64,000 bases of DNA from an uncultured Gammaproteobacteria bacterium (GTDB taxonomy: Bacteria > Patescibacteriota > Patescibacteriia > SG8-24): contig CAYOXM010000004.1 in the NCBI GenBank assembly GCA_964407925.1, forward strand, positions 12,389-76,388, in the 5' to 3' direction. A program made the position numbers and the translations under genes. The notes under the pieces were generated by a model. It ran no database searches. It was not told the DNA's origin and saw nothing but the letters and a program-made list of their open reading frames with translations. This document shows positions 9,616 to 55,176 of the stretch, piece after piece; position 1 is the stretch's first letter; each line of letters starts with the position of its first letter.

Positions 9616-9616
9616 A

Positions 9617-15705: not shown

Positions 15706-15999
15706 TTACCGCTGCGCCTCGCTCACGAAAGGGTTCGGGGACCCGGCGCCGCCGAGCGCGCGGACGGGAACGTCGCCGAACTGCTTGAGCGACTTATATT
15801 CGATGCGGTCGTAAATCTTGTCCTCGAGCGTCGTCGGCAAGGACAGCCGCGGCGAGCTCGGCGGCAGGGCCGCGTCGTCTCCGCTCGCCCGCGGGAGCAG
15901 CTTGTCTCGATAAAAATACAGCAGGACGACGACGATGATCGCGAGGATCGCGCCGAGGGCGAGGACTTGCTGCTGTTCTTTTTTCATCTTCATAGGCAT
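15706..15999 (-). CDS. small single-TM pilus-locus protein (PilP-like?)
   Basis: ORF 15706..16128; plausible start MPMKMKKEQQQ followed by a TM helix; start abuts the pilO stop. The upstream part of the ORF is R-rich noise. Confidence 0.5.
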   Translation of the reverse strand: MPMKMKKEQQQVLALGAILAIIVVVLLYFYRDKLLPRASGDDAALPPSSPRLSLPTTLEDKIYDRIEYKSLKQFGDVPVRALGGAGSPNPFVSEAQR

Positions 16000-16003
16000 C
16001 GGA

Positions 16004-16597: not shown

Positions 16598-16600
16598 AGG

Positions 16601-17473: not shown

Positions 17474-17483
17474 GGCACGTTGG

Positions 17484-21600: not shown

Positions 21601-23007
21601 GACGTCCTCGCGCGACGGGCACGGCCCGCAATTGCCGAACTTCCGCTTGCAATCGGTATCCGCGCAATCCTGCGGCCCGTCACCGTCGTCGTCGAAGGCG
21701 TTGCCGCAGTACTGATAGCGCTGGCCGAGGTCGAATTCCTTGTCGTAACAGACCTTGGAGGTGTCGAGCGGGTTGACGACGCCCTTGCAGTCGGTGTCGG
21801 CGCAATCCGAAAGGTGGTCGAGGTCGTCATCGACGCCGTTGAAGCACTGCGCGTCGGCATCAACGCCTCCCGCCGTCTTGTTCTCGCTCGCGGGGCAGGC
21901 GGCGTTGCCGGCGCAATCGTAATCCAGGCAGCGGAGCTCGCCGCCCACGGTGATTTCGCCGCCGGTCAGCGGCGCGTTGTCCCACGAGGGGTCGTAGCTC
22001 TTGTCCTTGTCGTTGTCGATGAAATCGGAGCAGCTCGTCTCCGTGGCGGGGCAGCCAAAAGCCGTTTTCTTCCAACAGATGGTGTTGACGTTGCCGCCCG
22101 CCGTCACGTCGAAGACGTTATCGACGCAGTCGGAAAGGCCGTCGGCGTCGTTGTCGAACGCGTCGCCGCACGTCGTAAGGCCGGTCTCGTTGCCGAACTG
22201 GCAAAGCGCCGTGCCCGACGGCTGCCCGACCTTGTTGTTGCAGCTGCTGTCGAGGCAGTCCGGCTTGCCGTCGGCGTCGTTGTCGAATCCGTCGTTGCAG
22301 GTGTTCTCCGGCTGCTCGCAGAGCGCGCCGCTCCCGACATTGCCCGTCTTGCCGGAACACTGCACGTCGGCACAGTCGCCGCCGAAGTCGAGATCGTTAT
22401 CGATGGCATCGGCGCAGGGGAAATCCATGCCCGAAATCGCGCCCCACGACGTCGATTCGTCACCGTTCGACGGCGCGCCCGCGTCGACGTAGAACGTGAG
22501 CGTCTGGCCGCCCGTATCGCCGTTCTGGATGACGCTCAGGCTGAAGTCGTAGGAACCCGCGGCGAGGCCGGAGAACTTCACGCTCATCACCTGGTCGACG
22601 ATGCACCCGGCGCATCCGTCGTTGTCCTTGCGCTCATAGGCGGTGCGTCCCGGATTCACGTCCTCGAGCGGCAGGATGACCGCGCTGTTCGTCGGATTCG
22701 CGTACTTGTCCCAAGTCGTGAAGGCGGGAAGGTCGAACAGGATGTACGAGACGAGACCCGCGGTGCTGTACACGCCGCCGTTCAGACGGACCTTGAGTTC
22801 GCCGCTCGGCGAAAGATGCTGGGTGTACGAGTAGTTCACGGTCTGCCCGCCGACGACCATCGATCCGGTACAGACGTTGCCCGCGCAGGGCGTGCCCGAG
22901 ACGAGCGCGCGCGCCGGCATGGCCGAACGCGCGCCAAACCAGACGACCGTCGCGAGGACGAAGGCCGACATGATGCCGATGGCGGTGGCGCGCGGGGCGG
23001 TCCTCAT
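18682..23007 (-). CDS. giant secreted repeat protein (1441 aa) with 9 or more MopE/thrombospondin-type-3-like Cys-framed Asp-rich repeats; candidate pilus-associated adhesin
   Basis: Start at MRTAPRATAIGIMSAFVLATVVWFGARSAMPARA (signal peptide). Repeats CADAIDNDLDFGGDCADVQC, CNDGFDNDADGKPDCLDSSC, CGDAFDNDADGLSDCVDN, CFNGVDDDLDHLSDCADTDC, CGNAFDDDGDGPQDCADTDC, CADGSDNDTDVIKDCADVTDC, CGDGFDNDSDAKVDCADSQC, CGDGKDNDGDAAIDCADSSC; later a TSP3-like 'QTDANANGVGDVCE' and Cys-rich segments. Confidence 0.8.
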   Translation of the reverse strand: MRTAPRATAIGIMSAFVLATVVWFGARSAMPARALVSGTPCAGNVCTGSMVVGGQTVNYSYTQHLSPSGELKVRLNGGVYSTAGLVSYILFDLPAFTTWDKYANPTNSAVILPLEDVNPGRTAYERKDNDGCAGCIVDQVMSVKFSGLAAGSYDFSLSVIQNGDTGGQTLTFYVDAGAPSNGDESTSWGAISGMDFPCADAIDNDLDFGGDCADVQCSGKTGNVGSGALCEQPENTCNDGFDNDADGKPDCLDSSCNNKVGQPSGTALCQFGNETGLTTCGDAFDNDADGLSDCVDNVFDVTAGGNVNTICWKKTAFGCPATETSCSDFIDNDKDKSYDPSWDNAPLTGGEITVGGELRCLDYDCAGNAACPASENKTAGGVDADAQCFNGVDDDLDHLSDCADTDCKGVVNPLDTSKVCYDKEFDLGQRYQYCGNAFDDDGDGPQDCADTDCKRKFGNCGPCPSREDVTYDSCADGSDNDTDVIKDCADVTDCAADAGAANRPNLGSLGHAAMCATAEDTNDECGDGFDNDSDAKVDCADSQCAGSLGPELQACQPAGESSCGDGKDNDGDAAIDCADSSCWGVGTCAPKNWTNATCQVVPRSTAPTAFTSNNPTVLATVRVAAHVSSTDVLRFTGSGTYSSVTIIVGDNTDAAKYYPYAAANPTCTLLDSVTGLPHARLTFLAVAGHAVQIYNTPGGNFGPFDVTLTCATPATPAATKNYPISISMLKQPGDVAEYGDVNFSTTLYESTVPTVIEVEPEAAMGGTIRVPYGVAPSLSQQMRMFRGVPTDPGGAPPLSSGICRCDVKINGTVFPTGPDCLTAPLLFPSDMALTIQARAEDGAGNLGAYFSAPAFSVNLTPALTSALTVTPGKPFFRTGNLKTTVSANFITAPGDSFNQPCEVYVRTPAGVVVGGPPGPVPPPTATFVGLIGGGTGNTMQCQAEVSLPTAIPDGMYYVTVGVRDSDGDTVESNRKAIFVCNDVPGPGDPDPGNGCAYADFDLDGASEGLYTTVYSTSPKACDNCVGLPNASQTDANANGVGDVCEPNKQYGRCRIDTEIVCECDSDEVCDYPCPGPSIGMDYSLLPPDHVDPQVCEPAWGLCTIGGQVCFDDTQCTDGGTAPGFPGYGLCQDGIKKCKRDVDCTDVMGSPACTGANRCENLLYPWLQTLQGNVFSKKRITAPDVPPANQYNATFCVTAKDVIINFNSAQTCDALAAAGAAGPNATVKFDRPKSGNAYSSVLGKLDLAGLRAGKFGTVIDVPPGQLDATLNSYSNRLGGKVFRVVGDATVGAHTIYNDGTKGNGTVFVDGGNLYVNGDFLYDTSTVTDLRQLASLGWIVVDDGSNAKGNVYVDGSVKNLVGAFYVGGDDGFWSVAPPLSDSPDPFTLHGLIVARQFHLSRSYKSVTQGSEQFVYDGRAVVNPPPGFGDVTKTLPIFADSAPQ

Positions 23008-24674
23008 GGTTTTTTGGTCACGTCGCCCGTCGCCCCGCAGCACAGGTCGCCGGACTGCGCGCCGGGGGAGAAGCAGTCGTCGGTTCCGCTCGCGTTATAC
23101 TTCGCCGCGCTCGTGCAGTCGCAATCGAAGTACCCGTCGTTGGCGTCGCCGTAGCCGCACTCGAGCCCGTCGACGATCTGATGGAGCGCGGGCTGGGAAA
23201 TCGTCCCCTGCCGCGTGCAGCACAGCGTCCCGCTCCCGAGCACGTAGGCGGGATCGGAGCAATCGATGATGCCGTCGCCCGCCTGACCCCAGGTGCACCG
23301 CGTGCGCGGCAGCGTCTGGCCCGAACACTGGTAGGACACGCCCTTGCAATAACGGTCAGCACAGTCGACGTACCCGTTCCCGTCGTTGTCGATCGTGTCG
23401 GCGCAGTTGCCCTCGACGGGAATGCCGCGCCGCATCGCGAGCGCGAACGACGCGTCGCCGGTGAAGTCGCACTGCGCGGCGTTCTTGAAGTAGTTGTCGG
23501 GAAAACCCGCGTTGCACTTGATGGCGAGATACTGGTCCTGCTGGGCGTCGAGGCCGGTCCAGGTGTTGCCGTGCGCGAATACCGGCTTGCGCGACGTCGT
23601 GGCGTCGATGATTTCGCGGCACTTGCCCGCGACTTCGTCGCAAATCTCCGTTCCCGCGGCGCATTGCGCGTCCGAAACGCAGGCCGACCCGTTCGCGTAC
23701 CCGGCGATGAGGCATTTGTTCAGGTACCAGAGGCTGTTCTGCTGGATGTTGTCCGCCGCGACCACCGTGTAGTCGAGCGTCGTGGTGCTGCCGCGCACGG
23801 TCGAGGTCATGACCTTGTTCACGATGCGCTTCGACGCGTCAGGGAGCAGGATCTCGCATTCCAGAAACTGATTTACGGCGGCGGAAAAACCCTGGAAGGT
23901 CACGGACATCTTGTTCCGGTGGGTGCCGGGGTACGTGCACGTCCCCGCGACGGTATCGCACTTGAGGAGCGGCGGCGTCGTGCAGTTCGCGTCGCTCACG
24001 CACGGCGGCATCGCCGTCGCGGTCGGTTCGTATATGCCCTCGGGACGCCGGACGGTGCCGAGGTCCGCAAGCACCCACGACGTGTTGGCGATACTGAAAT
24101 CGATCCAACCAATGCCGGTGCCGTCGGAATTGCCGCTCCACGCCCAGTGGTCGCCCGCCGCGCCTTTGGTGAAGTTGCCGTTCACGTTGTTGAGCACGAC
24201 GTGGTAATTGGAGGTCACGCAGTCGTCCGCGCCGACGTCTTTGTCGCAATTCAGCGAAATCCAGCCGTTCGCGCCGAGACTGACCACTTGCGCCCATCCC
24301 CAGAACTGATCCTGTTTGGCGTTGAACGTGCCGCGGTACTGCGCGTACGGCGCGCCGCCCTCCGGCGTCGTGCCCGTGCAGGTCGTGCCGAAGCAGATCC
24401 ACCCCATCGTTTCCGACCACGCCCAGCCGGTGAGGTCGCCGCGATCGGGGAAGCCGGGGGCGTTATCGATTGCCAAACCGTAATCCGCCGTCGCACAAGT
24501 AGCGTCGTTCGTGCAGTTGAGCGAGACCCAACCGATGGTTCCCGACCACGCCCAGCCGGTGACGTTGTCGGAGGTACCGGCGAACGCGCCTTGCGCGGCA
24601 AAAAAAACTCCGGCGGTAACGCCCAGCATTACCGAAAAAAATCGTATGGCGGCTCCCTTAAAAATGGGTCCCAT
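23004..24674 (-). CDS. secreted repeat protein (556 aa) with 4x GWAWS...GWI(S/D)(L/F) repeats and one MopE-like motif
   Basis: Start MGPIFKGAAIRFFSVMLGVTAGVFFAAQGAFA (signal peptide). Repeats TGWAWSGTIGWVSLNC, TGWAWSETMGWICFG, FWGWAQVVSLGANGWISLNC, DHWAWSGNSDGTGIGWIDFS; CADTIDNDGNGYVDCADRYC. Stop overlaps the giant-protein start (ATGA). Confidence 0.75.
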   Translation of the reverse strand: MGPIFKGAAIRFFSVMLGVTAGVFFAAQGAFAGTSDNVTGWAWSGTIGWVSLNCTNDATCATADYGLAIDNAPGFPDRGDLTGWAWSETMGWICFGTTCTGTTPEGGAPYAQYRGTFNAKQDQFWGWAQVVSLGANGWISLNCDKDVGADDCVTSNYHVVLNNVNGNFTKGAAGDHWAWSGNSDGTGIGWIDFSIANTSWVLADLGTVRRPEGIYEPTATAMPPCVSDANCTTPPLLKCDTVAGTCTYPGTHRNKMSVTFQGFSAAVNQFLECEILLPDASKRIVNKVMTSTVRGSTTTLDYTVVAADNIQQNSLWYLNKCLIAGYANGSACVSDAQCAAGTEICDEVAGKCREIIDATTSRKPVFAHGNTWTGLDAQQDQYLAIKCNAGFPDNYFKNAAQCDFTGDASFALAMRRGIPVEGNCADTIDNDGNGYVDCADRYCKGVSYQCSGQTLPRTRCTWGQAGDGIIDCSDPAYVLGSGTLCCTRQGTISQPALHQIVDGLECGYGDANDGYFDCDCTSAAKYNASGTDDCFSPGAQSGDLCCGATGDVTKKP

Positions 24675-24691
24675 ACTCGTGCTTGAGTATA
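24675..24691 (-). promoter_or_regulatory. TATACT -10 box 11 nt upstream of the GWAWS-repeat protein ATG (leaderless or short-leader transcript?)
   Basis: Minus strand ...TTTTTCGTGCTATACTCAAGCACGAGT-ATG; no SD. Confidence 0.35.
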
Positions 24692-24694
24692 GCA

Positions 24695-24725
24695 CGAAAA
24701 ATAGCCGATTTCACGGCTATTTTTA
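24695..24725. terminator. rho-independent terminator after rnhA (perfect 11-bp stem)
   Basis: AAAAATAGCCG-atttca-CGGCTATTTTT; on the minus strand the hairpin is followed by TTTTTCG. It lies between the rnhA stop and the GWAWS-protein start. Confidence 0.75.
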
Positions 24726-43927: not shown

Positions 43928-44719
43928 TCACGGGCAGCCGCACTCCGGATCGAAATCCGTATTGCAGCCGTCAGTACGCGGCGAGAGGTGCATGAGCGTG
44001 TAGCCCCAGCGCCAGCCGAGGCCGCCCGCCATGTATCCGTAGGCGAGCTGGTCGTAGGTGACGTCGAAGACGCCGTTGTAAGGATCGATCACGCGGTACG
44101 TCGACTTGCCGTACGCCGACGGACCGTAACCGCTCACGACGACGACGTGCCCCGCGAACGAGTTCAGGTACCCGACGATGATCGGCCTGCCGTTCGAGAG
44201 CTCGATACGCACTGCGGTCTCGCTGATGCCGCTGTCGAGCGCGGTGCCGTGGATGCCGAGCGTGGTGCCGAGGATGTACTCCATCTGCGGCTGGGGCGCC
44301 GGCTGGTTGCACGGTTGGTAGCCGCAGGCCGCGTAGTTGCAACAGACGGGCTGGGAAAAGCCGGCCTTGTACGAGGCGAGCTGGCACTCGCCCGCAGCGA
44401 TGCCGTAGTAGTTCGCCACCATCGTGATGGTCGCGGCCCAGCACCACTGCTGGCAGTACTGCGCGAGCGGGGTGACCGGAAGCAGGACGCCGTCGGGATC
44501 GGGCGAGAGCCGGTCGCCGCAGTACCCGCCCGGATTCGGGCCGGGTCCCGGTCCGGGTTTCCCAGGAGCATAGCCGCAGTCGCGCGGACAGGTATACGGC
44601 GATTCGTAGTTGTTGCAGGCGCCATCGCCGCAGTACGGCGCGGGCGGTCCGCAACTCGCTGCGACGAGCGCGACGATGGCGACGGCGACGATCGACCAAA
44701 TGGCGTTCAAAGTACGCAT
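43928..44719 (-). CDS. papain-like (C1/C39-like) cysteine peptidase lipoprotein
   Basis: Internal start MRTLNAIWSIVAVAIVALVAAS|CG (lipobox). Gly/Pro-rich linker, 'QQWCWAATITM' (catalytic Cys context), 'AGHVVVVSGYG' (His), 'GWRWGY' (Asn/Trp region). Own promoter and strong SD upstream. Confidence 0.65.
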   Translation of the reverse strand: MRTLNAIWSIVAVAIVALVAASCGPPAPYCGDGACNNYESPYTCPRDCGYAPGKPGPGPGPNPGGYCGDRLSPDPDGVLLPVTPLAQYCQQWCWAATITMVANYYGIAAGECQLASYKAGFSQPVCCNYAACGYQPCNQPAPQPQMEYILGTTLGIHGTALDSGISETAVRIELSNGRPIIVGYLNSFAGHVVVVSGYGPSAYGKSTYRVIDPYNGVFDVTYDQLAYGYMAGGLGWRWGYTLMHLSPRTDGCNTDFDPECGCP

Positions 44720-44765
44720 GAGCCTCCTCCTTGTCTTGTCCGTCCGGCTCTGAACGGGACTGCGC

Positions 44766-44794
44766 AGCGTAGCCGAAAAACGAACTCCCGTCAA
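44766..44794 (-). promoter_or_regulatory. promoter of the papain-like lipoprotein gene (TTGACG-17-TACGCT) with strong SD
   Basis: Minus strand TTGACGGGAGTTCGTTTTTCGGCTACGCT; AAGGAGGAGG 5 nt before the ATG. Confidence 0.5.
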
Positions 44795-44804
44795 CCCGTC
44801 AGGC

Positions 44805-44843
44805 AAAAGAAAACCGCCCGCGCACACGAAAGTGCGGGGCGGT
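44805..44843 (-). terminator. terminator downstream of nadE
   Basis: Minus strand CCGCCCCGCAC-TTTCGTG-TGCGCGGGCGG followed by TTTTCTTTTG. Confidence 0.65.
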
Positions 44844-44851: not shown

Positions 44852-46924
44852 TCAGCGAATCGCGTCGGGAACGTTCGCCTCGAGCTCGTCGAGCCACATC
44901 CGTGCCGTGGCGTCCGACGGCATCCGCCAGTCGCCGCGCGGCGAGATTGCCGTGAGGCCGACCTTCGGACCGTCGGGCAGGCACGAACGCTTGAACTGGC
45001 TGCCGACGAAACGCTGAAGGAACAGCCGCAGCCAGCGTTTGACGGTCGCGAGGTCGTACTTCCCGTCGAAGGCGTGGAGCGCCAGCCGCGCGATGCGCGA
45101 CGGACGGTAGCCCCAGCGGACCGTGCAGTAGCCGAAGAAGTCGTGGAGCTCGTACGGCCCGATGATCGACTCCGTCTTCTGCGCGATCTTCCCGTGCTCG
45201 TCCGGCGGAAGGAGTTCCGGGGAAATCTCCGTGTCGAGGACGTCCTTGAGGACCGCCCGGACTTCGGGCTCCTTCGCGTAGATGACTTCCGCCGTCCAGC
45301 CGATGAGGAACGAGATGAGCGTCTTCGGGACGCCCGCGTTCACGCCGTAGTGGCTGGCATGGTCGCCGAACATCGTGCACCAGCCGAGCAGGAGCTCGGA
45401 CAAGTCGCCGGTGCCGAGCACCATCGCGCCCTCGAATCCGGAGACCGAAAAGAGCACGTGCTTCCTCGACCACGCCTGGACGTTCTCGAAGAACGTCCGA
45501 CGGCGCAGGGTCACGACGCTCGCGTCCCCCGCGGCGATGCCGGCCTTGATCTCCGCGATGAAGGCGCCGGCGTCGTCGATGCCGAGGTCACGGAAGGTCT
45601 GCGAGGAGAGGTCGCGGATAGAAATTTCCCGGAACGTCCCGCCGATCGCCTTGATGAGCCGACAGGCGTTCTGATAGGTCCGGTCCGTGGTCCCGAAGCC
45701 GGGCATGGTGACGCCGACGATGTTCGTGCGCGGCAGACCAAGCAGGTCCATGGCATAGGCAGCCACGAGAATCGCCTGCGTCGAGTCCTGCCCGCCGGAG
45801 ACGCCGATGACGAGCTTGCGCATATCCGGGCGGAGCGACTCGAGCTTCCGCGCGAGCGCCGTCGCCTGGATCATGAACGTCTCCCGGCACCGCTCGTCCC
45901 GCCGCTTGGGGTCTGACGGCACGAAGGGGTGCGGTTCGACGGAGCGCTTGAGCGCGCGGTACGTCGCCGCCGCCGCGCCGGATTCCGTACGGTGGCGGAA
46001 CGCCGCGGTGCGGAACGGCGTACGGCGGTCGCTCGCATTCTGGTGGAACGAGCTCTGCCGGATGCGATCCTGTTGCAGCGATTCGAGGTCCACGTCGACG
46101 ACCGCGCTCGCGCCCTTGAGCGAGAACCGTTCGGTCCGCGCGACGAGCGCGCCGCGTTCGGCGACGTACCCGTCGCCGTCCCACGAAAGGTCGGTCGACG
46201 ACTCGCCGAAACCCGCGGCGCTGTACATTTGCACCGCGAGATTGCGTCCGGACGATCCCACGACGAGCTGCTCGCGGTACTCGGCCTTGCCGATCGTGAT
46301 GTTCGACGCCGACAGGTTGGCGAGCACGGTCGCGCCCGCGAGGGCGGCGACGGTCGACGGCGGAATCGGGACCCAGATGTCCTCGCACACTTCCGTATGC
46401 AGGACGAATCCCGAACCGTCGGTCGCCGCGACGAGGACGTCGGTACCGAACGGCACGACGTCCTCGTGGATGCGAATTTCCCTGCTGCGCGCCTCGCATC
46501 CGCGGGCGAAGTGCCGGAGTTCGTAGAACTCGCGGTACTCGGGCGGGTACGACTTCGGCGCGACGGCGATGACGTGGCCGTTCTGGCAGGTGACCGCGCA
46601 GTTGTAGACGGCGTCGTCCACGAGGAGCGGCATGCCTACCGAGAACAGCAGGTCGCGCCAACGGGTCGAATTCGCCAGAATCGAACTCAAGGCGCGCAAG
46701 GCGCCTTCGAGCAGGACCTGCGAATGGAACAGGTCGGCGCAACTGTAACCGGTGAGCCCGAGCTCGGGACAGAGCGCGTAGCAGGCGCCGTCCTTGTATG
46801 CGACGTCGAGCGCGTCGACGTGCGCTGCGGCGTTCGCCGCGGGATCGGCAACGGTCACGCGCGGAATGACGACCGCGACGCGACTGAAACCGTGTTCGAG
46901 TACGTTCAAGAAATCGTCTGACAT
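44852..46924 (-). CDS. nadE: glutamine-dependent NAD+ synthetase (nitrilase-like glutaminase domain + NAD synthetase domain)
   Basis: ~690 aa long-form NadE: N-terminal CN-hydrolase domain, C-terminal PP-loop 'GVSGGQDST'. Start chosen at the second Met (MSDDF), preceded by GAAGGAGG. Confidence 0.9.
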   Translation of the reverse strand: MSDDFLNVLEHGFSRVAVVIPRVTVADPAANAAAHVDALDVAYKDGACYALCPELGLTGYSCADLFHSQVLLEGALRALSSILANSTRWRDLLFSVGMPLLVDDAVYNCAVTCQNGHVIAVAPKSYPPEYREFYELRHFARGCEARSREIRIHEDVVPFGTDVLVAATDGSGFVLHTEVCEDIWVPIPPSTVAALAGATVLANLSASNITIGKAEYREQLVVGSSGRNLAVQMYSAAGFGESSTDLSWDGDGYVAERGALVARTERFSLKGASAVVDVDLESLQQDRIRQSSFHQNASDRRTPFRTAAFRHRTESGAAAATYRALKRSVEPHPFVPSDPKRRDERCRETFMIQATALARKLESLRPDMRKLVIGVSGGQDSTQAILVAAYAMDLLGLPRTNIVGVTMPGFGTTDRTYQNACRLIKAIGGTFREISIRDLSSQTFRDLGIDDAGAFIAEIKAGIAAGDASVVTLRRRTFFENVQAWSRKHVLFSVSGFEGAMVLGTGDLSELLLGWCTMFGDHASHYGVNAGVPKTLISFLIGWTAEVIYAKEPEVRAVLKDVLDTEISPELLPPDEHGKIAQKTESIIGPYELHDFFGYCTVRWGYRPSRIARLALHAFDGKYDLATVKRWLRLFLQRFVGSQFKRSCLPDGPKVGLTAISPRGDWRMPSDATARMWLDELEANVPDAIR

Positions 46925-47052
46925 GCCGCGATCCTCCTTCGCCATGCTGGTTGACGTTGCGTCGTTGTAAGGAGCGGGTCCTCCTTTCTCCGTGCCGCTG
47001 CGGCAAGCGGCGCGGGGAAAGGAGGCCGTGCCCGGAAAGGCACGGCGCGACC

Positions 47053-48015
47053 TCAGTCGTCGATCTGGTCGTCCGCCTCGTCGTCATCGTCGAAGATGAC
47101 GCGGGCGATCGAGCGATTCAGCGAGATGACTTCGAAAGGAGCGAGCTTCTCCACCTTGGCGGCGGTCTTGGGGCAGGAATCCGTGATCCACACCTTGGTA
47201 AATCCGGCATTCAGGAATTTCTTCCATGAGTCCTTCGGACAGCTGGCATGCGTCGCGAAGGCGCTCACCTTCGACGCGCCCGCGTCGAGGAGCGCCTTGC
47301 CGCACTCGATGGTCGTGCCGCCGGACTTGATGATGTCGTCGACGATGACCACGTGACGGCCGCGCACCTCGCCCTCGCGGACCGTGACGATGCGCCTGTC
47401 GCCGTCACGGACCTTGTCGCAGATCACGAGAGGAAACGCGCGGTCGCCCTTCTTCGATCCGTCGAACATCGCCTTGAACCGCTTCCAGGCGCCGATGTCG
47501 GGAAACGCGATCGACACGTCTTCGCCCTCGAGCGCGGTCTTCAGGTACTTCGTGCCGGTCTTGTACCGGGTCACGACGTTGTCGCCGAAGTAGTGCCGCT
47601 GGCCGAGCGCGTGGATGTCGTAGAGCACGACCTCCACGGGACCGCTCCGGCAGAGCGGCGTGGCGGAAAGCATCCGCGCGAACGTCTTCGCGGTGACCAC
47701 TTGGCTTTCGGTGTCGCCGCGCTCGAGCGTCCCGGTCGGGTAGTACGGCATGATCACCTTGATCTCCCTCGCGCCGAGGCGAGGCAAGGTATAGATGACG
47801 CTCAGCTGGCCGAAGACGTCCTCGACCGAGTCGAACGAGGCGAGAAAGGCGGCGCGCTTCTGGCGGATGCGCTCCTCCTTGCCGACGAAGACGTTCGGCC
47901 ACCCGTCCTCGAACGTCTTCCAGGAAATCTTGCCAAGGTGGATCTTGTCGTTCGCCTCGCAGATCTTCTGCGCGAGGCCCTTCATCTGCGGGCAGTGGAA
48001 AAGGACCGCTTCCAT
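47053..48015 (-). CDS. prs: ribose-phosphate pyrophosphokinase (PRPP synthetase) with acidic C-terminal tail
   Basis: Start MEAVLFHCPQMKGLAQKI; PRPP-binding 'VVIVDDIIKSGGT'. Unusual DDDDEADDQIDD tail. Confidence 0.8.
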   Translation of the reverse strand: MEAVLFHCPQMKGLAQKICEANDKIHLGKISWKTFEDGWPNVFVGKEERIRQKRAAFLASFDSVEDVFGQLSVIYTLPRLGAREIKVIMPYYPTGTLERGDTESQVVTAKTFARMLSATPLCRSGPVEVVLYDIHALGQRHYFGDNVVTRYKTGTKYLKTALEGEDVSIAFPDIGAWKRFKAMFDGSKKGDRAFPLVICDKVRDGDRRIVTVREGEVRGRHVVIVDDIIKSGGTTIECGKALLDAGASKVSAFATHASCPKDSWKKFLNAGFTKVWITDSCPKTAAKVEKLAPFEVISLNRSIARVIFDDDDEADDQIDD

Positions 48016-48084
48016 CGTGTTCCCTCCTGACTGATGTCGCACGTGCACACTTCCGCGTTTCGTCCTCGGCAGCCGACGACCGTC

Positions 48085-48125
48085 GGCAACCGAGGAAAAA
48101 CGCGGAGACGGCAGACCGTCTCCGC
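48085..48125 (-). terminator. terminator downstream of pncB, upstream of prs
   Basis: Minus strand GCGGAGACGG-TCTG-CCGTCTCCGC-GTTTTT, then a second nested hairpin and the AGGAGGG SD of prs. Coordinates approximate. Confidence 0.6.
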
Positions 48126-48130
48126 GCGGC

Positions 48131-49393
48131 TCATACCACGCACTCGCGCCGTTCTACGTTGGCGTACCCGAAAATCTTTTTGAAGAGATCGACGGTCGCC
48201 GCGTCGCCCGAGGCCTTGTCGAGATTGTTCGACAGCTTCACGAGCGGATGCCCGTTGGCCTCGGTCGCCTTCACGACGAACGAACCGAACGTCGGCAGTC
48301 CCGTGTCGTTCGAGAGCGTCGTCCCCCATCCCGGCTTCATCGCCTTGAAGCGATTGCGAAAGGTGAGATGGAGCGCGATGACCGAATCGACGTCGAGCCC
48401 GTCGGTCGGGTTCAGGACCTTCGTCCGCGGGTCGACGCCGTGCGACCTGAGGTACGCCTCGAGCATCTCTCCCTCGTGGAACGGATTGCCCGAGTCGACC
48501 TTGTAGACGTTCCAGGCCGCGGCGCGTTCGGCGCCGAAGTCCTCGAAGAACGCCTTGGAGCCGTACGTGTCGAGCACCGCCGTGCTCCAGCGCGGGCCGA
48601 ACGTCGCCATCCAGTCGTCCATGAACTTCATGTGCGACGCGCGGATTTCCGCCCGGAGTCCCCAGTGGATGCCGGAATAGACCATCGGGCCTTGATGCGC
48701 GAACGTGCCGATGACCGGCCAGCCGAGTTCCTTGGCCATCCAGACGTGCGAGATGCCGGCCAGTTGTCCGGGGATTTCCCGGACGAGCGTCTCGTCGATG
48801 AACCGCGACAGTTCGTAGCTGAATTGCCGCCGCAGGCCGAACTCCCCGAACTGGAGGTCCGGGTACTGCCGCAGGAGCTCGATCTTGCGACCGAGCCTGC
48901 GGCCGGCCTCGGCCCAGAGCCGGCGTTCCGTGACGCCATGCTGACGCATCACCCACTCGCCGTTCAGCTTGGTGATGATCGGCAGGATGAAGGTTTCCCA
49001 GTCCATGCCGTCGCACCAGGCGCCATGCGGCTCGATGCGATATGTCGGCCCGTCGGGCGACGCGACCTTCTCGATGTCGATCGCCGACAGCCAGTTCGTC
49101 TGGAGATAGCCGAGATACTCGTCGGGCAGGAAGCCGTTCGGGACGCCGACGCCGAACTTGGCGCGGAGCCACTCGATTTCCTCCGCCGTGTAGGCGAGAC
49201 GGCTGACATGCCCGATCTCCTCGCGGAGCCGGCCCTCGTCAATGCGTTCGCCGAGCACGATGCCCTTGGAGCGGTTCTTGAATCCCCAGCGGACGTGGAC
49301 GTCGCGATGCCGCAGCCAGGCGAAGTAGCCCATGGTGACGTAGTACCAGTCCTTCTGCAGGCGGCTGCTCACGATCGGCTTGTCGTTGGTCAT
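48131..49393 (-). CDS. pncB: nicotinate phosphoribosyltransferase
   Basis: 420 aa; NAPRTase-family length and features. Own SD (GGAGGAG) and TACAAT -10-like box upstream. Confidence 0.85.
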   Translation of the reverse strand: MTNDKPIVSSRLQKDWYYVTMGYFAWLRHRDVHVRWGFKNRSKGIVLGERIDEGRLREEIGHVSRLAYTAEEIEWLRAKFGVGVPNGFLPDEYLGYLQTNWLSAIDIEKVASPDGPTYRIEPHGAWCDGMDWETFILPIITKLNGEWVMRQHGVTERRLWAEAGRRLGRKIELLRQYPDLQFGEFGLRRQFSYELSRFIDETLVREIPGQLAGISHVWMAKELGWPVIGTFAHQGPMVYSGIHWGLRAEIRASHMKFMDDWMATFGPRWSTAVLDTYGSKAFFEDFGAERAAAWNVYKVDSGNPFHEGEMLEAYLRSHGVDPRTKVLNPTDGLDVDSVIALHLTFRNRFKAMKPGWGTTLSNDTGLPTFGSFVVKATEANGHPLVKLSNNLDKASGDAATVDLFKKIFGYANVERRECVV

Positions 49394-49509
49394 GTCTCCT
49401 CCAAAATCGGGGCGTGGTATGGATTGTAACGATCAGGCTTGATCTTCCGCGGGCGACCGGATGTCACCGGCGGAAGAAGAAGGGCAAGCGCGAGGCTTGC
49501 CGTGCCGCG

Positions 49510-50037
49510 CTAGGCGGCGAGCGCGTTCCATTCGCTGCGGAGCATCGACATGCGCACCATGTCGTGATACACGCCGTCGAGCAGGTACTCCTGGCGAAGG
49601 ACGCCCTCCTGGACGAAGCCCATCTTGGCGTACGTCGTCCGTGAACGGACGTTCTCGACGAAAACGTTCAGGTAGACCTTGTTGAGGTCGAGCTGCGTGG
49701 GATCGAAGGCCACGGCGAGCGCCGCGCTGATCGCCGCCCTGCCATACCCCTTGCCGCGGTCATCCTTCCGGAAGACGAGCAGGCCGAGACGGGCGGTGCG
49801 AAGGTGCTCGTCGATCTCATGGAGGCCGACCGTGCCGACGAGGACGCCGTCGGCATCCACGCCCCACAGCCGCTCGGCGGGATTCGCGAGCACCTTTTCG
49901 AGGTATGCGCGCTGCCGTGGGACCGTCACCGGCGCGGAGAAGAACTTGAGGTTCCTCGTCGCCCCGGGATCGAGCGCGTCGACCATGCGCGCGGCGTCAT
50001 CCGCACTCACGGGAACCAACCGGATCGTCATGGCTTC
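49510..50037 (-). CDS. GNAT family N-acetyltransferase (RimJ/RimL-like)
   Basis: Internal start MTIRLVPVSADD of ORF 49510..50511 (the upstream 158 codons are R-rich noise). 'LLVFRKDDRGKGYGRAAI' acetyl-CoA binding motif. Confidence 0.8.
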   Translation of the reverse strand, partial: EAMTIRLVPVSADDAARMVDALDPGATRNLKFFSAPVTVPRQRAYLEKVLANPAERLWGVDADGVLVGTVGLHEIDEHLRTARLGLLVFRKDDRGKGYGRAAISAALAVAFDPTQLDLNKVYLNVFVENVRSRTTYAKMGFVQEGVLRQEYLLDGVYHDMVRMSMLRSEWNALAA

Positions 50038-50042
50038 CTCCT

Positions 50043-51431
50043 TCACGGAAACAGGTCTTCGGCGAGTTTTGCCGCCATGTCGCGATGCGGCGAGAAGGCG
50101 ATCTCGACCGAGGCCACGCGACTCGGCCGAATGCGCATCGCGCAGACTTCGCCGCGGTCCTGGCCGTCGACGAACGCGCGGATCGGACGCTTCCGGAAAT
50201 CGAGCGATGCGATCTCGACCGACGAATCGAGCGAGAGCGGCGCCGACTTCCAGCCGCGCGGCGAGAACACGTTGTTGCCGACGATGAGCCAGCCGCGCGT
50301 GTCGACGAGGAGCGGCGTCGCGCCCATCGAGCGCGCGTAACCGGTGGAACCGGCCGCGGTGCTCACGAGCGCGCCATCCGCGACGAGCTTTTCGATGCGC
50401 GCGTGGCCGTCGACTTTCACCTCGAGCCAGGCGCACTGCCCGGTGCCGCAGGCGACCCACGCGTCGTTGAACGCGTAGGAGCCGAAACGGTCGCCGCGCA
50501 GGTCCTGGCACTCGACGTAAAGCTGCGGGAGCTGCTGCACGCGGAGACTGTCGAAGAAGAAGCCGGGATCCTGCAGGTCGTCGTCGATCTCGTTCAGCAG
50601 ATATCCGCGGTGTCCCGCGTTCAGCCCGACGAACGGCAGGCGGCGACGCCAGTGCTTGCGGATGGCCCGCAGCATGGTGCCGTCGCCGCCGATGGCGACG
50701 AAGCAGTTGGCCGAATCTTCCGTCGTCGCGATGCCGGACAGCCGTTCTGCCAGCGCCTTCGCGCGCGGATTGCGCTCGTCGACGAAGACGAACGGTCGCG
50801 GGTCACCGAGGCGCAAGGTCGTCGTCTGCGACGGCGTGCCGCCGCGGTACAGGTTGTACCGCTCCATGTAGGCCGCGACCTCCGGGACGACCCGGTCGGC
50901 ATACGGTTGCCGCCGGAACGCCCGTTCGCGGACGTCAGTGCTCGAACCGCCGTTCATGCCGTCGATCACGATGCGCTGCGGCGGGAGGTCTGCGGGGTTG
51001 CAGGGGAAGTCGTTGCGCGTCATCACGACGAAGCGGCAGGTACGCCACAGGCGCTCCCCCTCCTCCCACTGCCGCTGGATGGGCGACTGCCCGTCCTTGC
51101 CGCCGGCAATCAGGTCCGTGCCGACCACGTGCCAGATTTCGCCGCCTTCTCGCAAACCGTACAGCTCGTCGAGCCGGTGGGTCTTCGTGAAGGTGGCGTG
51201 CTCGAGGTCGAACAAGTCGACCTGCGCCTTGGGGATGCCGCGGAAGGTCAGGTCCGCCATCACCGCCCGATGGACGGGCTCGATGTCGTTGGTCTGCTCC
51301 TTGTCCGGGCGCGGCCCGCACGGGATGACGATGATCTTTTCGAAATGCGGGACGAGCGCCGCGGCGACGTCGCGATGATGCGCCGCCGACGGGTTGAAAC
51401 TCCCGCCGAACAGGGCGACTTTTGCGGTCAT
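50043..51431 (-). CDS. nadD-nadK: fusion protein: NaMN/NMN adenylyltransferase (NadD-like) N-terminal domain + NAD kinase (NadK) C-terminal domain
   Basis: N-terminus 'VALFGGSFNPSAAHHRD' (nucleotidyltransferase (H/T)xGH-type motif, NadD-like). C-terminal half 'NCFVAIGGDGTMLRAI', 'NDAWV', 'TAAGSTGYARSMGATPL' (NAD kinase GGDG and conserved C-terminal motifs). Confidence 0.8.
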   Translation of the reverse strand: MTAKVALFGGSFNPSAAHHRDVAAALVPHFEKIIVIPCGPRPDKEQTNDIEPVHRAVMADLTFRGIPKAQVDLFDLEHATFTKTHRLDELYGLREGGEIWHVVGTDLIAGGKDGQSPIQRQWEEGERLWRTCRFVVMTRNDFPCNPADLPPQRIVIDGMNGGSSTDVRERAFRRQPYADRVVPEVAAYMERYNLYRGGTPSQTTTLRLGDPRPFVFVDERNPRAKALAERLSGIATTEDSANCFVAIGGDGTMLRAIRKHWRRRLPFVGLNAGHRGYLLNEIDDDLQDPGFFFDSLRVQQLPQLYVECQDLRGDRFGSYAFNDAWVACGTGQCAWLEVKVDGHARIEKLVADGALVSTAAGSTGYARSMGATPLLVDTRGWLIVGNNVFSPRGWKSAPLSLDSSVEIASLDFRKRPIRAFVDGQDRGEVCAMRIRPSRVASVEIAFSPHRDMAAKLAEDLFP

Positions 51432-51463
51432 TGCGCACCTCTTGGATGGAGGTCAAGGAACGT

Positions 51464-51490
51464 TTGCCGCAAGCGACATGCTTGCGGCAA
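51464..51490 (-). promoter_or_regulatory. perfect 11-bp inverted repeat TTGCCGCAAGC-N5-GCTTGCGGCAA upstream of nadD-nadK (candidate operator)
   Basis: Located ~35 nt upstream of the ATG, just upstream of a TTGACC box and the AGAGGTG SD; not followed by a U-run, so unlikely to be a terminator. Confidence 0.5.
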
Positions 51491-51590
51491 GAGAGCTTGC
51501 GCCGACGCCGCCGTCAGCGGAAATTCTCTGAAAAGATATCCGAGGACGGACCGCGCACGGCGGTCCGCCCCGGGGTCGTGACGAAAGGGA

Positions 51591-52376
51591 TCACTTTGCC
51601 GCGAGCTGGTCGGCGACGATGATGCGCACGCCGGCGTCTGCCATGAGCAGCGTCATCTTCTCCTCGAGGCCGGGAATCGGCACCGAGCGCGTCGCGTCCT
51701 TGATGACGCAGACCTCGAAGCCGCGCTTGGCGAAACCGAGGGCGCTGTAGCCGACGCAGTGGGTGAAGGCGTTGCCGTCCATGAAGACGCGCTTCACGCC
51801 CTCGTCCCGCATCTGCTCCGCAAGACCGGTCGTCCTGCCGAGGTTGTCGCTCTCGGCGCTGTACGAGTCGCACAGCGGGTCGTACCCCTTGAGGAGCACG
51901 AGACGGAAACCGAGGTCGCGGAGCGCGGGATGGAGCTCGGCCTCTTCGGAACCGATCCCGCCGTGCTCCGGCCAGAGCGTCTGCTTCTTGTCGGTCGTCC
52001 CCTCGAGGTAGTGCATCAGGTCGAACAGGCTGATGCCTGCCGCGCGAATGACGGCGGACGGATCCGTGCCGTCATTGATCCAGCCGAGCACGCGGTCGAG
52101 GGTGAGGTCGTCGTACGGCTTGAAGCCGACGTACGACGACACCCAGGAGACGTGCCCTCGCGGATGCTGGTCGAGCGAGGCGAACCGCCGCTCGACCGGG
52201 AAGAACGACGTATTCCGGAGGACGACGGGGAGAATCTCGTGGCCGCCGGGTACCGGGAGCCCGCCGCCTTTGACCGGCTTTCCGTCCCAGGAATGGTCGG
52301 GCATGAAAGCGGTCTGGACGTCGGTGTGAAGGATTGCATCGGTCTCCGGATCGATGACGATTGTGCCGTTATGCAT
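51591..52376 (-). CDS. pncA: isochorismatase-family nicotinamidase
   Basis: Internal start MHNGTIVIDPETDA...; 'VQTAFMPDHSWDGKP' and Cys-containing 'THCVGYSALGF' typical of PncA-like nicotinamidases. Confidence 0.7.
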   Translation of the reverse strand: MHNGTIVIDPETDAILHTDVQTAFMPDHSWDGKPVKGGGLPVPGGHEILPVVLRNTSFFPVERRFASLDQHPRGHVSWVSSYVGFKPYDDLTLDRVLGWINDGTDPSAVIRAAGISLFDLMHYLEGTTDKKQTLWPEHGGIGSEEAELHPALRDLGFRLVLLKGYDPLCDSYSAESDNLGRTTGLAEQMRDEGVKRVFMDGNAFTHCVGYSALGFAKRGFEVCVIKDATRSVPIPGLEEKMTLLMADAGVRIIVADQLAAK

Positions 52377-52407
52377 CGGACGTTCCTTTCGTGGTGGAAG
52401 GAGCTGA

Positions 52408-52460
52408 TATCCGCCGACTTTGGCGAAAAAACGCGAAGGCGGATAACGCCGAACGCTATC
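52408..52460 (-). promoter_or_regulatory. inverted repeats upstream of pncA (TATCCGCC-N22-GGCGGATA; GATAACGCC-G-AACGCTATC): candidate NrtR/regulator site
   Basis: Two overlapping IR systems in the 119-nt nrtR-pncA gap; the second is a 9-1-9 IR with one mismatch. Confidence 0.4.
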
Positions 52461-52495
52461 GCGTTTCTGACCTTCCGTCAAGGCGGCCGACCGCC

Positions 52496-53167
52496 TTAAA
52501 AGAGCGCGATGTCCGCCTTCCTGCGCGACCGGAAACGGTACAACGCCGCGGGACGATGCGCGCCGCCGCGATCACGCTTTCCGGTATCGGCGAGAAGGTC
52601 GAGGGAGAGGATTTTTTTGCGGAAGTTCCGCTTGTCGAGCGTACGGCCGAGGATGGCCTCGTACGTCGCCTGGAGCGCCGAGAGCGTGAATGCCTCGGGA
52701 AGCAGGCTCCACGCCACGTTCGCGTACTGCAACTTCGCCCGGACGCGCCCGAGCGCGTACCGGAGCATGGACTCGTGGTCGTATGCGAGCCTCGGCAGCG
52801 CGCCGACGGGCCAGAAGCGCACGTCGGCGTACTTCTCGGAGGTACGCAAGCGGACGCCGTCGTGCGGCACGAGCGCGAATGAAGCGATGCTCACCACGCG
52901 GCCGAACGGGTCGCGGCGGGGATCGTCAAACGTGGCGAGCTGCTCGAGGTAGAGGTCGGTGACGCCGGTCTGCTCGCGCAGGATGCGGCGCGCGGCGTCC
53001 TCCGACGTCTCGTCGTCGCCCAGCAGGCCGCCCGGCATCGCCCACCGCCCGGCGAACGGCTTCTTTTTCATCTGGATGAGCAGGACGTGCAGCTCCCCTC
53101 CGCGCACCGTAAAAATGGCGGCATCGACGGCGACCTTGATGTCCTGAGACGAGGGGTGGCGCGGCAT
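52496..53167 (-). CDS. nrtR: Nudix-related transcriptional regulator of NAD metabolism (NrtR-like): Nudix domain + C-terminal winged-helix-like domain
   Basis: 223 aa; N-terminal Nudix fold with degenerate Nudix box (GRWAMPGGLLGDDETSEDAARRILREQTG), ~80-aa C-terminal extension ending ...ALYRF. Sits at the head of the pncA/nadD/pncB/nadE cluster. Confidence 0.6.
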   Translation of the reverse strand: MPRHPSSQDIKVAVDAAIFTVRGGELHVLLIQMKKKPFAGRWAMPGGLLGDDETSEDAARRILREQTGVTDLYLEQLATFDDPRRDPFGRVVSIASFALVPHDGVRLRTSEKYADVRFWPVGALPRLAYDHESMLRYALGRVRAKLQYANVAWSLLPEAFTLSALQATYEAILGRTLDKRNFRKKILSLDLLADTGKRDRGGAHRPAALYRFRSRRKADIALF

Positions 53168-53262
53168 GGTCGTTAGTTAGTGTTCGATGGACGTAAAGTA
53201 GCACCACCCGCCCCGGCGGTCAACCCGCGGCAAAGAAAAAAGGGCCGACGTCGTCGGACCTC

Positions 53263-53913
53263 TCAGTGCGCCGCGCGCGCCGGCACTTCGCCGCCGTTCG
53301 GCAGACAGCAACGGGCGCGCATCCATCCCTTCCCCGCCCCGAAAGCCTCGTGCGGGAACCAGACGACGGCGTCCTGAAGCACCATGCCGCCCCTGCCGAC
53401 CCGGGAATTGCCGCGGACGAAACTCAGCCGAAGCGGCCGCAGTTCCTCCTCGACGACCTGCGCTACGGCAGTCACCGTCAGCGCGCCGAGCAGATGCCGC
53501 TCGTCGCCGCGGGCGCCGCCGTCGACCGCGATGCACGGCGTCGGATCGATTTCCGCCACGGGACGCCGGTCGCGCGTCGTGAGCGCGTCCTTCCCGGGGT
53601 CATAGACGCACCAGGCCGCGCCGAGCAGGTACACGCGCAGCACGAGCGGACCGGTGACGATCACCTGATGGTCAGGCGCGGCCTCGTGGTACTTCCGGAT
53701 GCCCGCCCACTTCTCGTACGACTGCCTGCGGGCGGGGTCGGGCCACGGGACGGCGGCGTCGGACCACGTCGCGACGCCGTTGCCGAAACGCTTCGCGAGA
53801 CGGCCGACGAGCGTCGAGTACGCGCCGAAGACGCGCGCGAAGTTGAACAGCGGACCCTCGACGAGTGCCGCTCCGCCGGAAATGACGTAACGGCTCGGAC
53901 CGGTCATGCGCAT
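53263..53913 (-). CDS. conserved hypothetical protein, paralog A (WC(V)YDP ... FPH motif family)
   Basis: 216-aa ORF; clear paralogy to 54517..55176 (ALVEG..F, WP(D/E)P, YLLG..WCV(Y/H)DP, (W/T)FPH..(F/Y)G.GKG). Followed by a terminator. Confidence 0.6.
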   Translation of the reverse strand: MRMTGPSRYVISGGAALVEGPLFNFARVFGAYSTLVGRLAKRFGNGVATWSDAAVPWPDPARRQSYEKWAGIRKYHEAAPDHQVIVTGPLVLRVYLLGAAWCVYDPGKDALTTRDRRPVAEIDPTPCIAVDGGARGDERHLLGALTVTAVAQVVEEELRPLRLSFVRGNSRVGRGGMVLQDAVVWFPHEAFGAGKGWMRARCCLPNGGEVPARAAH

Positions 53914-54516: not shown

Positions 54517-55176
54517 TCAGTTCGCCTTCTGGTCCGTATCCGCAGGGTCGCCGTCGGGTTCGACGCAGCGCACGCGGACGAAGTCGCGGCCTTTGCCGTA
54601 GACGGCGTGCGGGAACGTCACGTACGCGACGAGCAGCGCGCGTCCGGTGGCGCGATCGACTCGCGGCCCGCTCGCCTCGAAAGCGAGCCCGAGATGCGCA
54701 AGATTCGCCGTGACGATACGGCGCGCGACAGCGATGTCGCGCTCGTCCGCCATGCCGTACTGGTTCGGCCCGATCTGCTCGCCGTAAATGCAGACGACCG
54801 GTTGCGGCTCGAGGTCGGCGACGTCCTCCCCGAGCGGCGTGGTGATGCGTCCGGTCGCGGGATCATGCACGCACCAGGTCTTGCCGAGCAGGTACGCCTT
54901 CACGGTCATCCTGCCCATCACATGCACGAGCGCCTCGTCCACGACCTCGTAGAGTTCCGCCATCCCGTACCAGGCCTTGCGTGCCGTCGCCTTTCCCGGC
55001 TCGGGCCAAGGAATCTTTTTCTGATGCGCCGGGTGGGCCGTCGAAAGCGTCGTCGCGCCGTCAGCGAACTCCTCGGCGAGCGCGCCGACGAGCTCCTCGT
55101 AGGCATCGAGGATGACGTTCAGGTCGAAACGATTTCCCTCAACGAGGGCGTAACCGTGCATCACGCGCGGGTTCAT
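54517..55176 (-). CDS. conserved hypothetical protein, paralog B
   Basis: C-terminal 219 codons of the artefactual 1167-aa ORF 54517..58020 (a different frame from PBP1A): MNPRVMHGYALVEGNRFDL...WCVHDP...TFPHAVYGKGRDF; paralog of 53263..53913; terminator downstream. Confidence 0.6.
   Translation of the reverse strand: MNPRVMHGYALVEGNRFDLNVILDAYEELVGALAEEFADGATTLSTAHPAHQKKIPWPEPGKATARKAWYGMAELYEVVDEALVHVMGRMTVKAYLLGKTWCVHDPATGRITTPLGEDVADLEPQPVVCIYGEQIGPNQYGMADERDIAVARRIVTANLAHLGLAFEASGPRVDRATGRALLVAYVTFPHAVYGKGRDFVRVRCVEPDGDPADTDQKAN

Follow-up and report, generated by a model that had tools for sequence, protein, structure and literature searches.

The locus described here raises the question of what a compact run of genes for nicotinamide adenine dinucleotide (NAD) metabolism does in an uncultured bacterium, and how far the NrtR-type regulator encoded at its head controls the genes behind it. 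It lies in contig CAYOXM010000004.1 of assembly GCA_964407925.1 (positions 12,389 to 76,388, forward strand), a stretch of 64,000 nucleotides which is referred to below as the window. The open reading frame (ORF) listing and a gene map based on third-codon-position G+C (GC3) show seven same-direction ORFs on the minus strand between 44852 and 53167, in the order nrtR-pncA-(NadD-NadK fusion)-GNAT-pncB-prs-nadE. We propose that this cluster probably serves Preiss-Handler salvage and recycling of NAD, extended to NADP, with an NrtR that regulates its own gene.

Gene content and predicted salvage route

The domains of the seven products were recovered in Pfam and NCBIfam profile searches and, together with catalytic motifs, they bear out the functions which an earlier note on this DNA had assigned to the genes. 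PncA shows an Isochorismatase domain (PF00857) and matches a nicotinamidase of known structure (PDB 2wt9, 4e-21). Its Asp/Lys/Cys triad and D-x-H-P-x-x-H metal site align with those of PDB 2wt9 and 3r2j, and it carries an insertion of about 35 residues relative to the solved PncA structures. PncB shows PF04095 (98.2 bits) and the NAPRTase_N domain PF17767 (47.8 bits), and its PDB matches, six of six, are nicotinate phosphoribosyltransferases (NAPRTases), the best being 1ybe (1.5e-59); it is predicted to be of the NAPRTase type, and not Nampt or QPRT. NadE contains the CN_hydrolase (PF00795) and NAD_synthase (PF02540) domains and reaches 821.2 bits against a cut-off of 473 with NF002730, in agreement with the long glutamine-dependent form that had been proposed. 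The fusion contains a CTP_transf_like domain and the N- and C-terminal domains of NAD_kinase (Pfam, NCBIfam). The N-terminal part can be aligned with mycobacterial NadD (PDB 5db4) over its whole length and keeps the ISSTxxR motif as GSSTDVRE, and the NAD kinase motifs GGDG, NxGxxG and DG...GSTAY are present. All 25 fusion members compared share GGSFNP..HH, S-x-x-I-R-E, GGDG, NxGHxG and DG..GST.Y without change.

The following enzymatic route is suggested by the families to which the proteins belong and by the catalytic residues that they keep. PncA would deamidate the nicotinamide set free by NAD-consuming enzymes, a class II phosphoribosyl pyrophosphate (PRPP) synthase would provide PRPP, and PncB would convert nicotinate and PRPP to nicotinate mononucleotide (NaMN). 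The N-terminal domain of the fusion would then adenylylate NaMN to nicotinate adenine dinucleotide (NaAD), the glutamine-dependent NadE would amidate NaAD to NAD, and the C-terminal domain of the fusion would phosphorylate NAD to NADP. Read in this way, neighbouring genes would rebuild nicotinamide to NAD and NADP, and the cluster offers a compact genomic picture of a small-genome bacterium keeping its NAD(P) pool closed.

Neither the window nor ten loci of its lineage gave a tblastn match (E<=1e-3) to nadA, nadB, nadC, pnuC, nadR or ADP-ribosylglycohydrolase, with NadA, NadB and NadC (C-terminal part) of E. coli and with PnuC, NadR and ADP-ribosylglycohydrolase from relatives as queries. Nor did Pfam reveal de novo NAD genes among the roughly 40 ORFs of the window that were surveyed, and the absence of nadABC reported earlier is thereby upheld over the 64 kb. 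The earlier note found this consistent with an obligate salvager, which on 64 kb of the genome is no more than a candidate reading. The sole NAD consumer identified in the window is LigA, the NAD-dependent DNA ligase (5276-7348, minus strand), which releases nicotinamide mononucleotide (NMN), not nicotinamide; the window showed no NMN deamidase.

The coordinates of the cluster genes and of their putative control elements are collected in Table 1, and L-numbers are the labels of related loci used for comparison. The starts chosen for PncA and Prs agree with the gene calls in L088 and L089, in which PncA has 261-262 residues. The GNAT start at ATG 50031 lies 11 nt past the stop codon of the fusion and behind an AGGAGG, and an alternative ATG of nadE at 46924 has a better ribosome-binding site than the start at 46945.

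Table 1. Genes of the cluster, putative control elements and the accessory gene of related loci
Feature	Position	Strand	Description
nrtR	52496-53167	-	Nudix-related transcriptional regulator, 223 aa
pncA	51591-52376	-	nicotinamidase, 261 aa from ATG 52376; ORF open to 52481
NadD-NadK fusion	50043-51431	-	462 aa; NadD-type residues 1-197, NAD kinase residues ~215-462
GNAT N-acetyltransferase	49510-50031	-	SpeG-like, 173 aa
pncB	48131-49393	-	nicotinate phosphoribosyltransferase, 420 aa
prs	47053-48015	-	predicted class II PRPP synthase, 320 aa from ATG 48015
nadE	44852-46945	-	long-form glutamine-dependent NAD synthetase, 697 aa
Predicted NrtR operator	53175-53199	minus-strand reading	25-bp imperfect palindrome ACTTTACGT-N7-ACACTAACT; GT-N7-AC core, overlaps nrtR -10
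Putative nrtR promoter	53195-53223	-	TTGACC (53223-53218), 17-nt spacer, TACTTT (53200-53195); read by eye
Perfect hairpin, conserved leader upstream of fusion	51464-51490	-	11-bp arms, TTGCCGCAAGC-ATGTC-GCTTGCGGCAA
Terminator-like hairpin after GNAT	49483-49501	-	GGCAAGC-N5-GCTTGCC, then CTTCTTCTT
Intrinsic-terminator-like hairpin after pncB	48100-48127	-	12 pairs, then TTTTT; scan and fold
Tandem hairpins, prs-nadE spacer	46980-47047	-	second pairs CCUCCUUUC with GAAAGGAGG; fold z -4.4
Terminator-like hairpin and T-run after nadE, cluster end	44803-44843	-	read by eye
NUDIX hydrolase in the GNAT slot	L176 4047-4745; L009 11453-12148; L064 11512-12249; L008 ~2908-3567		

NrtR, its operator and the transcription units

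The N-terminal part of NrtR shows a NUDIX domain (PF00293, 62.3 bits, cut-off 21.1) and the protein also matches the winged-helix domain NrtR_WHD (PF21906, 94.9 bits, cut-off 27) and PF19368 (55.9 bits). The C-terminal DNA-binding domain is therefore present, and the NrtR-type architecture stands as the earlier note had described it. The protein aligns over its full length with PDB 5bs6 (BtAraR, 150 bits) and 3gz5 (Shewanella NrtR, 118 bits), and its best solved relative is the arabinose sensor BtAraR, whose Arg86 and His131 have conserved equivalents. The Nudix box is degenerate, with RILREQ where REUXEE is expected, and resembles that of non-catalytic NrtRs (PMC4666351); by this impaired signature NrtR is predicted to be a non-hydrolytic sensor. 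Effectors vary within the NrtR family and include ADP-ribose, NAD and arabinose. An NAD-derived effector probably relieves repression here, ADP-ribose being the candidate by analogy with characterised NrtRs. A scan of JGI metagenomes with an NrtR profile returned distant NrtRs only (<=61% identity) and no close orthologues for covariation.

When the sequences ahead of nrtR from the window, L009, L064, L005 and L013 are aligned, a conserved palindrome, ACTTTGTGT-N7-ACACTAAGT, stands out, which directly follows a TTGAC-N17-TACTTT promoter and overlaps it. The operator of the window has the GT-N7-AC geometry of the published 21-bp NrtR motif (PMC2330246) and departs from the consensus at three positions. 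No other stretch of the 64 kb matches ACTTNGTGT-N7-ACACNAAGT at <=3 mismatches, where 0.04 are expected by chance; a 12-site matrix gives the operator a score of 24.5, the next site 6.6 and the best of 20 shuffles 16.3. Orthologous boxes lie 2-18 nt before nrtR in L009, L064, L005, L013, L022, L045, L086 and L080, and a box is found about 2-5 nt ahead of nrtR in L176 and L089. The single operator overlaps the -10 of the putative nrtR promoter, and this predicts autorepression. The promoter was not picked up by a strict consensus scan; its TTGAC-N17-TACTTT is kept in L064, L005 and L013.

The earlier note had read the array as an NrtR-headed supra-operon and had suggested a palindromic operator shared by all its genes. 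A pattern search and two weight matrices across the window gave one NrtR site only, at the nrtR promoter, with none before the other six genes. In L088, L009, L064, L013 and L176, as in the window, NrtR boxes are absent ahead of pncA, the fusion, pncB, prs and nadE. An operator common to all genes was rejected on these searches. The seven genes might still be expressed as one NrtR-repressed transcript from the nrtR promoter, given that they are co-directional, with gaps of 11-159 nt, and that the sole box stands at the head of the array. The hairpin 3' of nrtR has no T-run, the T-tracts of several inter-gene hairpins are poor (CTTCTTCTT, CTCCTTTCC), which would allow read-through, and L089 has a second box ahead of pncA. 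However, the other six genes of the window have no upstream operator, a strong terminator (12 pairs and then TTTTT) lies 3' of pncB, stable hairpins occupy four spacers (z -2.5 to -5.0), and a promoter-like element, TTGACG-N17-TA(A/G)CGT, is conserved ahead of pncA in the window, L088 and L089. We consider a single NrtR-repressed transcript unlikely. Because of the inter-gene hairpins and the promoter-like element before pncA, the predicted organization of the cluster is best described as several transcription units, and not as one demonstrated NrtR operon. In this arrangement transcripts from the nrtR promoter would reach pncA by read-through, a likely event given that no T-run follows the hairpin behind nrtR, and the other genes would form separate transcription units behind hairpin-rich conserved spacers, without direct NrtR control in this genome.

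Additional NrtR boxes were found in related loci. In L089, the closest long relative, a second near-perfect box (AGTTATTGTTAATACTACAATAACT) lies at 8822-8846 between nrtR and pncA, within roughly 100 nt that the window and L088 lack. A second box precedes pnuC-nadR in the distant clusters of L045 (7063-8646), L054 (6793-8537) and L086 (3955 and 11383-13156), and in the unrelated L119 (8022-11144, 41% G+C) a box overlaps a TATAAT -10 ahead of nadE-nrtR-GNAT. These boxes argue that the NrtR proteins of this clade do control NAD genes, as predicted from their positions; in the window itself, autoregulation of nrtR is the only control by NrtR that the predicted sites make visible. An inverted repeat, ATAGCG-N5-CGTTAT, overlaps the putative pncA -10 at 52443-52459 and reads ATAACG-N5-CGTTAT in L088 and L089. 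As the rest of the cluster holds no further copy, it was rejected as the motif of a second regulator.

Hairpins, some of them terminator-like, follow pncA (weak), GNAT, pncB, prs and nadE. The hairpin that stands after GNAT is also present 3' of the Nudix gene in L064, and the stem after nadE has one bulge, for which reason a gapless scan did not list it. The spacers at 46946-47052, 48016-48130, 49394-49509 and 51432-51590 (minus strand) contain tandem stable hairpins, with fold z values of -5.0, -4.7, -4.4 and -2.5 among them, the -5.0 belonging to the spacer upstream of the fusion. In these spacers a terminator-like stem comes first, and its pyrimidine tail is the 5' arm of a second helix, the 3' arm of which is a run of purines or of Shine-Dalgarno-like sequence. 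Relatives share this layout, with compensatory changes; in the prs-nadE spacer, both are kept in six loci. No Rfam family reached its gathering threshold over the whole window and three weak hits over the cluster (E<=5) are at chance level; known riboswitches and small RNAs were thus rejected as the spacer elements, and a tRNA search found none. That the enzyme genes are controlled not by NrtR but by these spacers, which lie ahead of the fusion, pncB, prs and nadE and would be an undescribed class of leader (attenuator or riboswitch) sensing an NAD-related metabolite, is an idea to which we give a slim chance.

Several points weigh against a salvage cluster with an autoregulated NrtR. Scores below the NCBIfam equivalog cut-offs were obtained for NrtR (144 bits against 400, NF050029), PncA (75.9 against 174, NF008623), PncB (264.7 against 379 and 189.7 against 269.55, TIGR01514 and NF003704), the NAD kinase part of the fusion (136 against 211, NF003406) and its NadD part (61.5 against 112). 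Most of the cluster proteins other than NadE are divergent members of their families. The HxGH motif of adenylyltransferases reads A/G-x-H-H in all 25 aligned fusion members. The residue aligned to Arg41 of Shewanella NrtR, which contacts the phosphate of ADP-ribose, is an invariant Met in the clade, and the effector is uncertain for this reason. For pncA, the fusion, pncB, prs and nadE the strict scan gave no promoter, those proposed being read by eye where there are any. Both the enzymatic roles and the transcript structure rest on homology and context.

Conservation of the cluster and comparison with known systems

Related loci were reached through homologues of the fusion and of Prs. The gene order returns in at least ten loci of related metagenome-assembled genomes, of which two carry the label Parcubacteria or Patescibacteria in public sources. 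In a tblastn survey, the order nrtR-pncA-fusion-GNAT-pncB-prs-nadE is identical in L088 and L089, with 83-91% protein identity. L176, L009, L064 and L008 keep the order with another gene in the GNAT slot, and shortened versions of the cluster are found in L013, L011, L010, L001 and L005. As the order is kept across related loci, the arrangement is non-random. The distant clusters (e.g. L045, L054 and L086) carry pnuC-nadR and ADP-ribosylglycohydrolase genes; in these three the ADP-ribosylglycohydrolase gene lies between the fusion and pncB and is followed by a short ORF read as Nudix-like, without a Pfam match. The theme across the cluster versions is turnover of NAD and ADP-ribose.

Adjacency could also be no more than gene order inherited in a small genome, with housekeeping genes that have no functional or regulatory coupling. 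The non-NAD flanks (PBP1A, two unknowns, a LOG-family gene and Era) are indeed syntenic in L005, L009, L064 and L089 as well, and the fusion gene stands alone in most phyla. Nevertheless, the NAD genes are together without detected window-type flanks in L013 (Vicinamibacterales), L008 (Binatia) and L011, which belong to other taxa by their source labels, and again in the distant low-GC clusters L045, L054, L086 and L099. Furthermore, the accessory genes swapped into the cluster (Nudix, ADP-ribosylglycohydrolase, pnuC-nadR) are related to NAD or ADP-ribose, and NrtR boxes lie inside these clusters. We regard mere inheritance of gene order as very improbable.

The GNAT gene, which had been singled out as an unusual member, is embedded in the cluster and SpeG-like (PF13302 Acetyltransf_3, 63.1 bits; PDB SpeG 7kwh, 3.7e-17). 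Its score with NF011709 is below the cut-off (66.7 against 218) and polyamine specificity is not implied. Its unusual place does not extend beyond the closest relatives: besides the window, L088 and L089 were the only loci with a GNAT gene between the fusion and pncB. The slot is taken in L176, L009, L064 and L008 by a NUDIX hydrolase of about 231-245 residues with an intact catalytic box, and L064 also carries a DUF1152 gene between pncB and prs. The slot hydrolase is probably an ADP-ribose pyrophosphatase. If so, ADP-ribose in these relatives would be recycled through ribose-5-phosphate, fed to Prs, to PRPP, closing a recycling loop of the type proposed in PMC2330246; neighbouring genes of the Nudix-carrying relatives would then probably rebuild ADP-ribose too. 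In L119, the GNAT of nadE-nrtR-GNAT is 31% identical (1e-30) to that of the window, so that a SpeG-like acetyltransferase recurs in NrtR operons, and its co-operonic position there hints at a link of GNAT to NAD homeostasis. Acetylation of mycobacterial NrtR is known, but it is non-enzymatic (PMC6800001); the SpeG-like GNAT could modify NrtR or an NAD-pathway intermediate enzymatically. In the NrtR of the window, the Lys of RAKLQY corresponds to K134 of MsNrtR.

Homologues of the fusion number 887 at E<=1e-5 among the candidates scored, with more than 120 full-length at >=50% identity. By source labels they come from at least four phyla: Verrucomicrobiota (including the cultured Brevifollis gellanilyticus), Acidobacteriota, Planctomycetota and Patescibacteria. 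About 15 of 80 genome loci with the fusion have NAD neighbours within 10 kb, and in Verrucomicrobiota, Acidobacteriota and Planctomycetota it usually stands alone, so that the clustering is a feature of the window's lineage and of a few others. Databases label the fusion as NAD kinase, and a search of the literature at hand gave no paper describing a NadD-NadK fusion. Other bifunctional NAD enzymes are NadM-Nudix (Synechocystis, Francisella) and NadR, which combines NMN adenylyltransferase and ribosylnicotinamide kinase. Like these, the fusion joins an NMN/NaMN adenylyltransferase domain to a second NAD-pathway activity; it differs in that the partner is NAD kinase and in that, via NaMN, its two predicted steps are not consecutive, with NadE acting between them.

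NrtR regulons of matching composition have been published, among them nrtR-pncA-pncB-nadD-nadE and nrtR-prs-nadV (PMC2330246). The salvage regulons described by Rodionov et al. (2008, PMC2330246) share with the window a Nudix and winged-helix regulator adjoining pncA, pncB, nadD and nadE, and a palindromic GT-N7-AC operator which overlaps the promoter and implies repression. In the window, however, nadD is fused to nadK, by which the route would reach NADP, the set also includes a PRPP synthase and a GNAT, and the box is found only at the nrtR promoter. The nrtR-prs-nadV operons of Shewanella, Acinetobacter and Cytophaga (PMC2330246) likewise tie a dedicated prs to NrtR-associated nicotinamide salvage, but the window has PncB, of the deamidated route, instead of NadV, no NrtR box before prs, and a Prs of class II. 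The departures of the cluster from published NrtR regulons are thus the nadD-nadK fusion, the class II Prs, the GNAT/Nudix accessory slot and the enzyme genes without boxes. These findings leave the current understanding of NAD metabolism standing; what deserves attention is the NadD-NadK fusion, the plant-type class II Prs apparently dedicated to NAD recycling, and the recurrence of a SpeG-like GNAT in NrtR operons.

Prs scores 136.7 bits with TIGR01251 (cut-off 113) and shares 46-50% identity with plant PRS4 and with homologues from Desulfobacterales, against 73 bits with the class I enzyme of B. subtilis. The loop LPYYPTGT(L/M)ER, which reads LPYYPTGTLER in the window, is common to the plant and Desulfobacterales homologues. 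In class II PRPP synthases (spinach, Arabidopsis PRS3/PRS4 and bacterial enzymes, PMC13252144) a TTMER motif replaces RQDRK, and the PTGTLER of Prs corresponds to it; the xTGT(L/M)ER loop thus stands in place of RQDRK, and the ribose-5-phosphate loop DDxxxxGGT is kept. On these features Prs is a predicted class II PRPP synthase and not a phage Adps. As a member of that class it would be expected to work independently of phosphate and with a broad range of diphosphoryl donors. It differs from the described class II enzymes in its embedding in an NAD cluster and in the acidic C-terminal tail DDDDEADDQIDD, which is limited to the window's lineage. An acidic-tailed Prs had been listed as unusual: the tail is there, as a lineage-specific appendage, and the remaining oddity of the protein is explained by its class II identity.

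In the phage pathway NARP1 (Adps and Namat; bioRxiv 10.1101/2024.02.11.579819), NAD is also reconstituted by the products of a Prs-family gene beside a gene of the nicotinamide/nicotinate phosphoribosyltransferase family, but the Prs of the window falls outside the phage group, its transferase is of the NAPRTase type, and the presence of NadD and NadE gives a complete canonical Preiss-Handler route. A bacterial deamidated analogue of NARP1, in which the Prs-like protein would make ADP-ribose pyrophosphate (ADPR-PP) from ADP-ribose and the PncB-like protein would join it with nicotinate to NaAD, could draw on a Prs paralogue lying beside a type II phosphoribosyltransferase and a regulator of the NrtR family, characterised members of which respond to ADP-ribose, on the first annotation of phage Adps as Prs and on a match of PHROG 619 to Prs (5e-30), but we reject it as scarcely credible, because Prs shares its 46-50% identity with a plant class of demonstrated PRPP synthase activity, a tblastn search with Prs against 50,697 phage records gave 26 matches, all at <=29% identity, the partner is PncB-type and not Nampt/Namat-type, the NadD domain would be redundant if NaAD were made directly, and the Nudix hydrolase of the relatives, if it splits ADP-ribose, would supply ribose-5-phosphate to a normal Prs.

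Host lineage and neighbouring genes

The conserved NAD(P) cluster sits in a high-GC lineage related to metagenome-assembled genomes labelled Patescibacteria or Parcubacteria, the source names of the relatives being "Candidatus Parcubacteria bacterium" and "Patescibacteria group bacterium". The G+C content of the window is 65%, which is unusually high for Patescibacteria/Parcubacteria. Other genes of the window encode a type IV pilus, 2-oxoacid:ferredoxin oxidoreductase, acetate kinase, a PduL-type phosphotransacetylase, MurJ and LigA. These genes fit a Patescibacteria-like lifestyle, and the lineage appears to be Patescibacteria-like and fermentative.

Upstream of nrtR, a pair of paralogues of about 216 residues, UnkA and UnkA2, encoded at 53263-53913 and 54517-55176 on the minus strand, are 35% identical and have no Pfam match. 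The family is rare: 1.84 billion proteins contained 60 representatives at E<=1e-3. A confident AlphaFold model, made from a 41-sequence alignment, has a predicted local distance difference test (pLDDT) score of 93.3 and a predicted template modelling (pTM) score of 0.88, and gave no PDB match in Foldseek at E<=1e-3. The pair adjoins nrtR in L005, L009, L064 and L089; both were rejected as members of the cluster, since distant members of the family are not near NAD genes. A role of the cluster in anti-phage defence was also rejected, PADLOC having given only marginal matches to phosphoribosyltransferase loops.

Two further ORFs with coding-like GC3 and no Pfam match, of 1453 residues (18682-23043, minus strand) and 563 residues (23004-24695, minus strand), adjoin the type IV pilus gene block (8941-18584). 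Directly downstream of nadE, a gene at 43928-44827 (minus strand) encodes a protein rich in cysteine whose papain-fold peptidase domain is C39/C70-like, and a gene for a C39/C70-like peptidase is the neighbour of nadE in L088 and L176 too.

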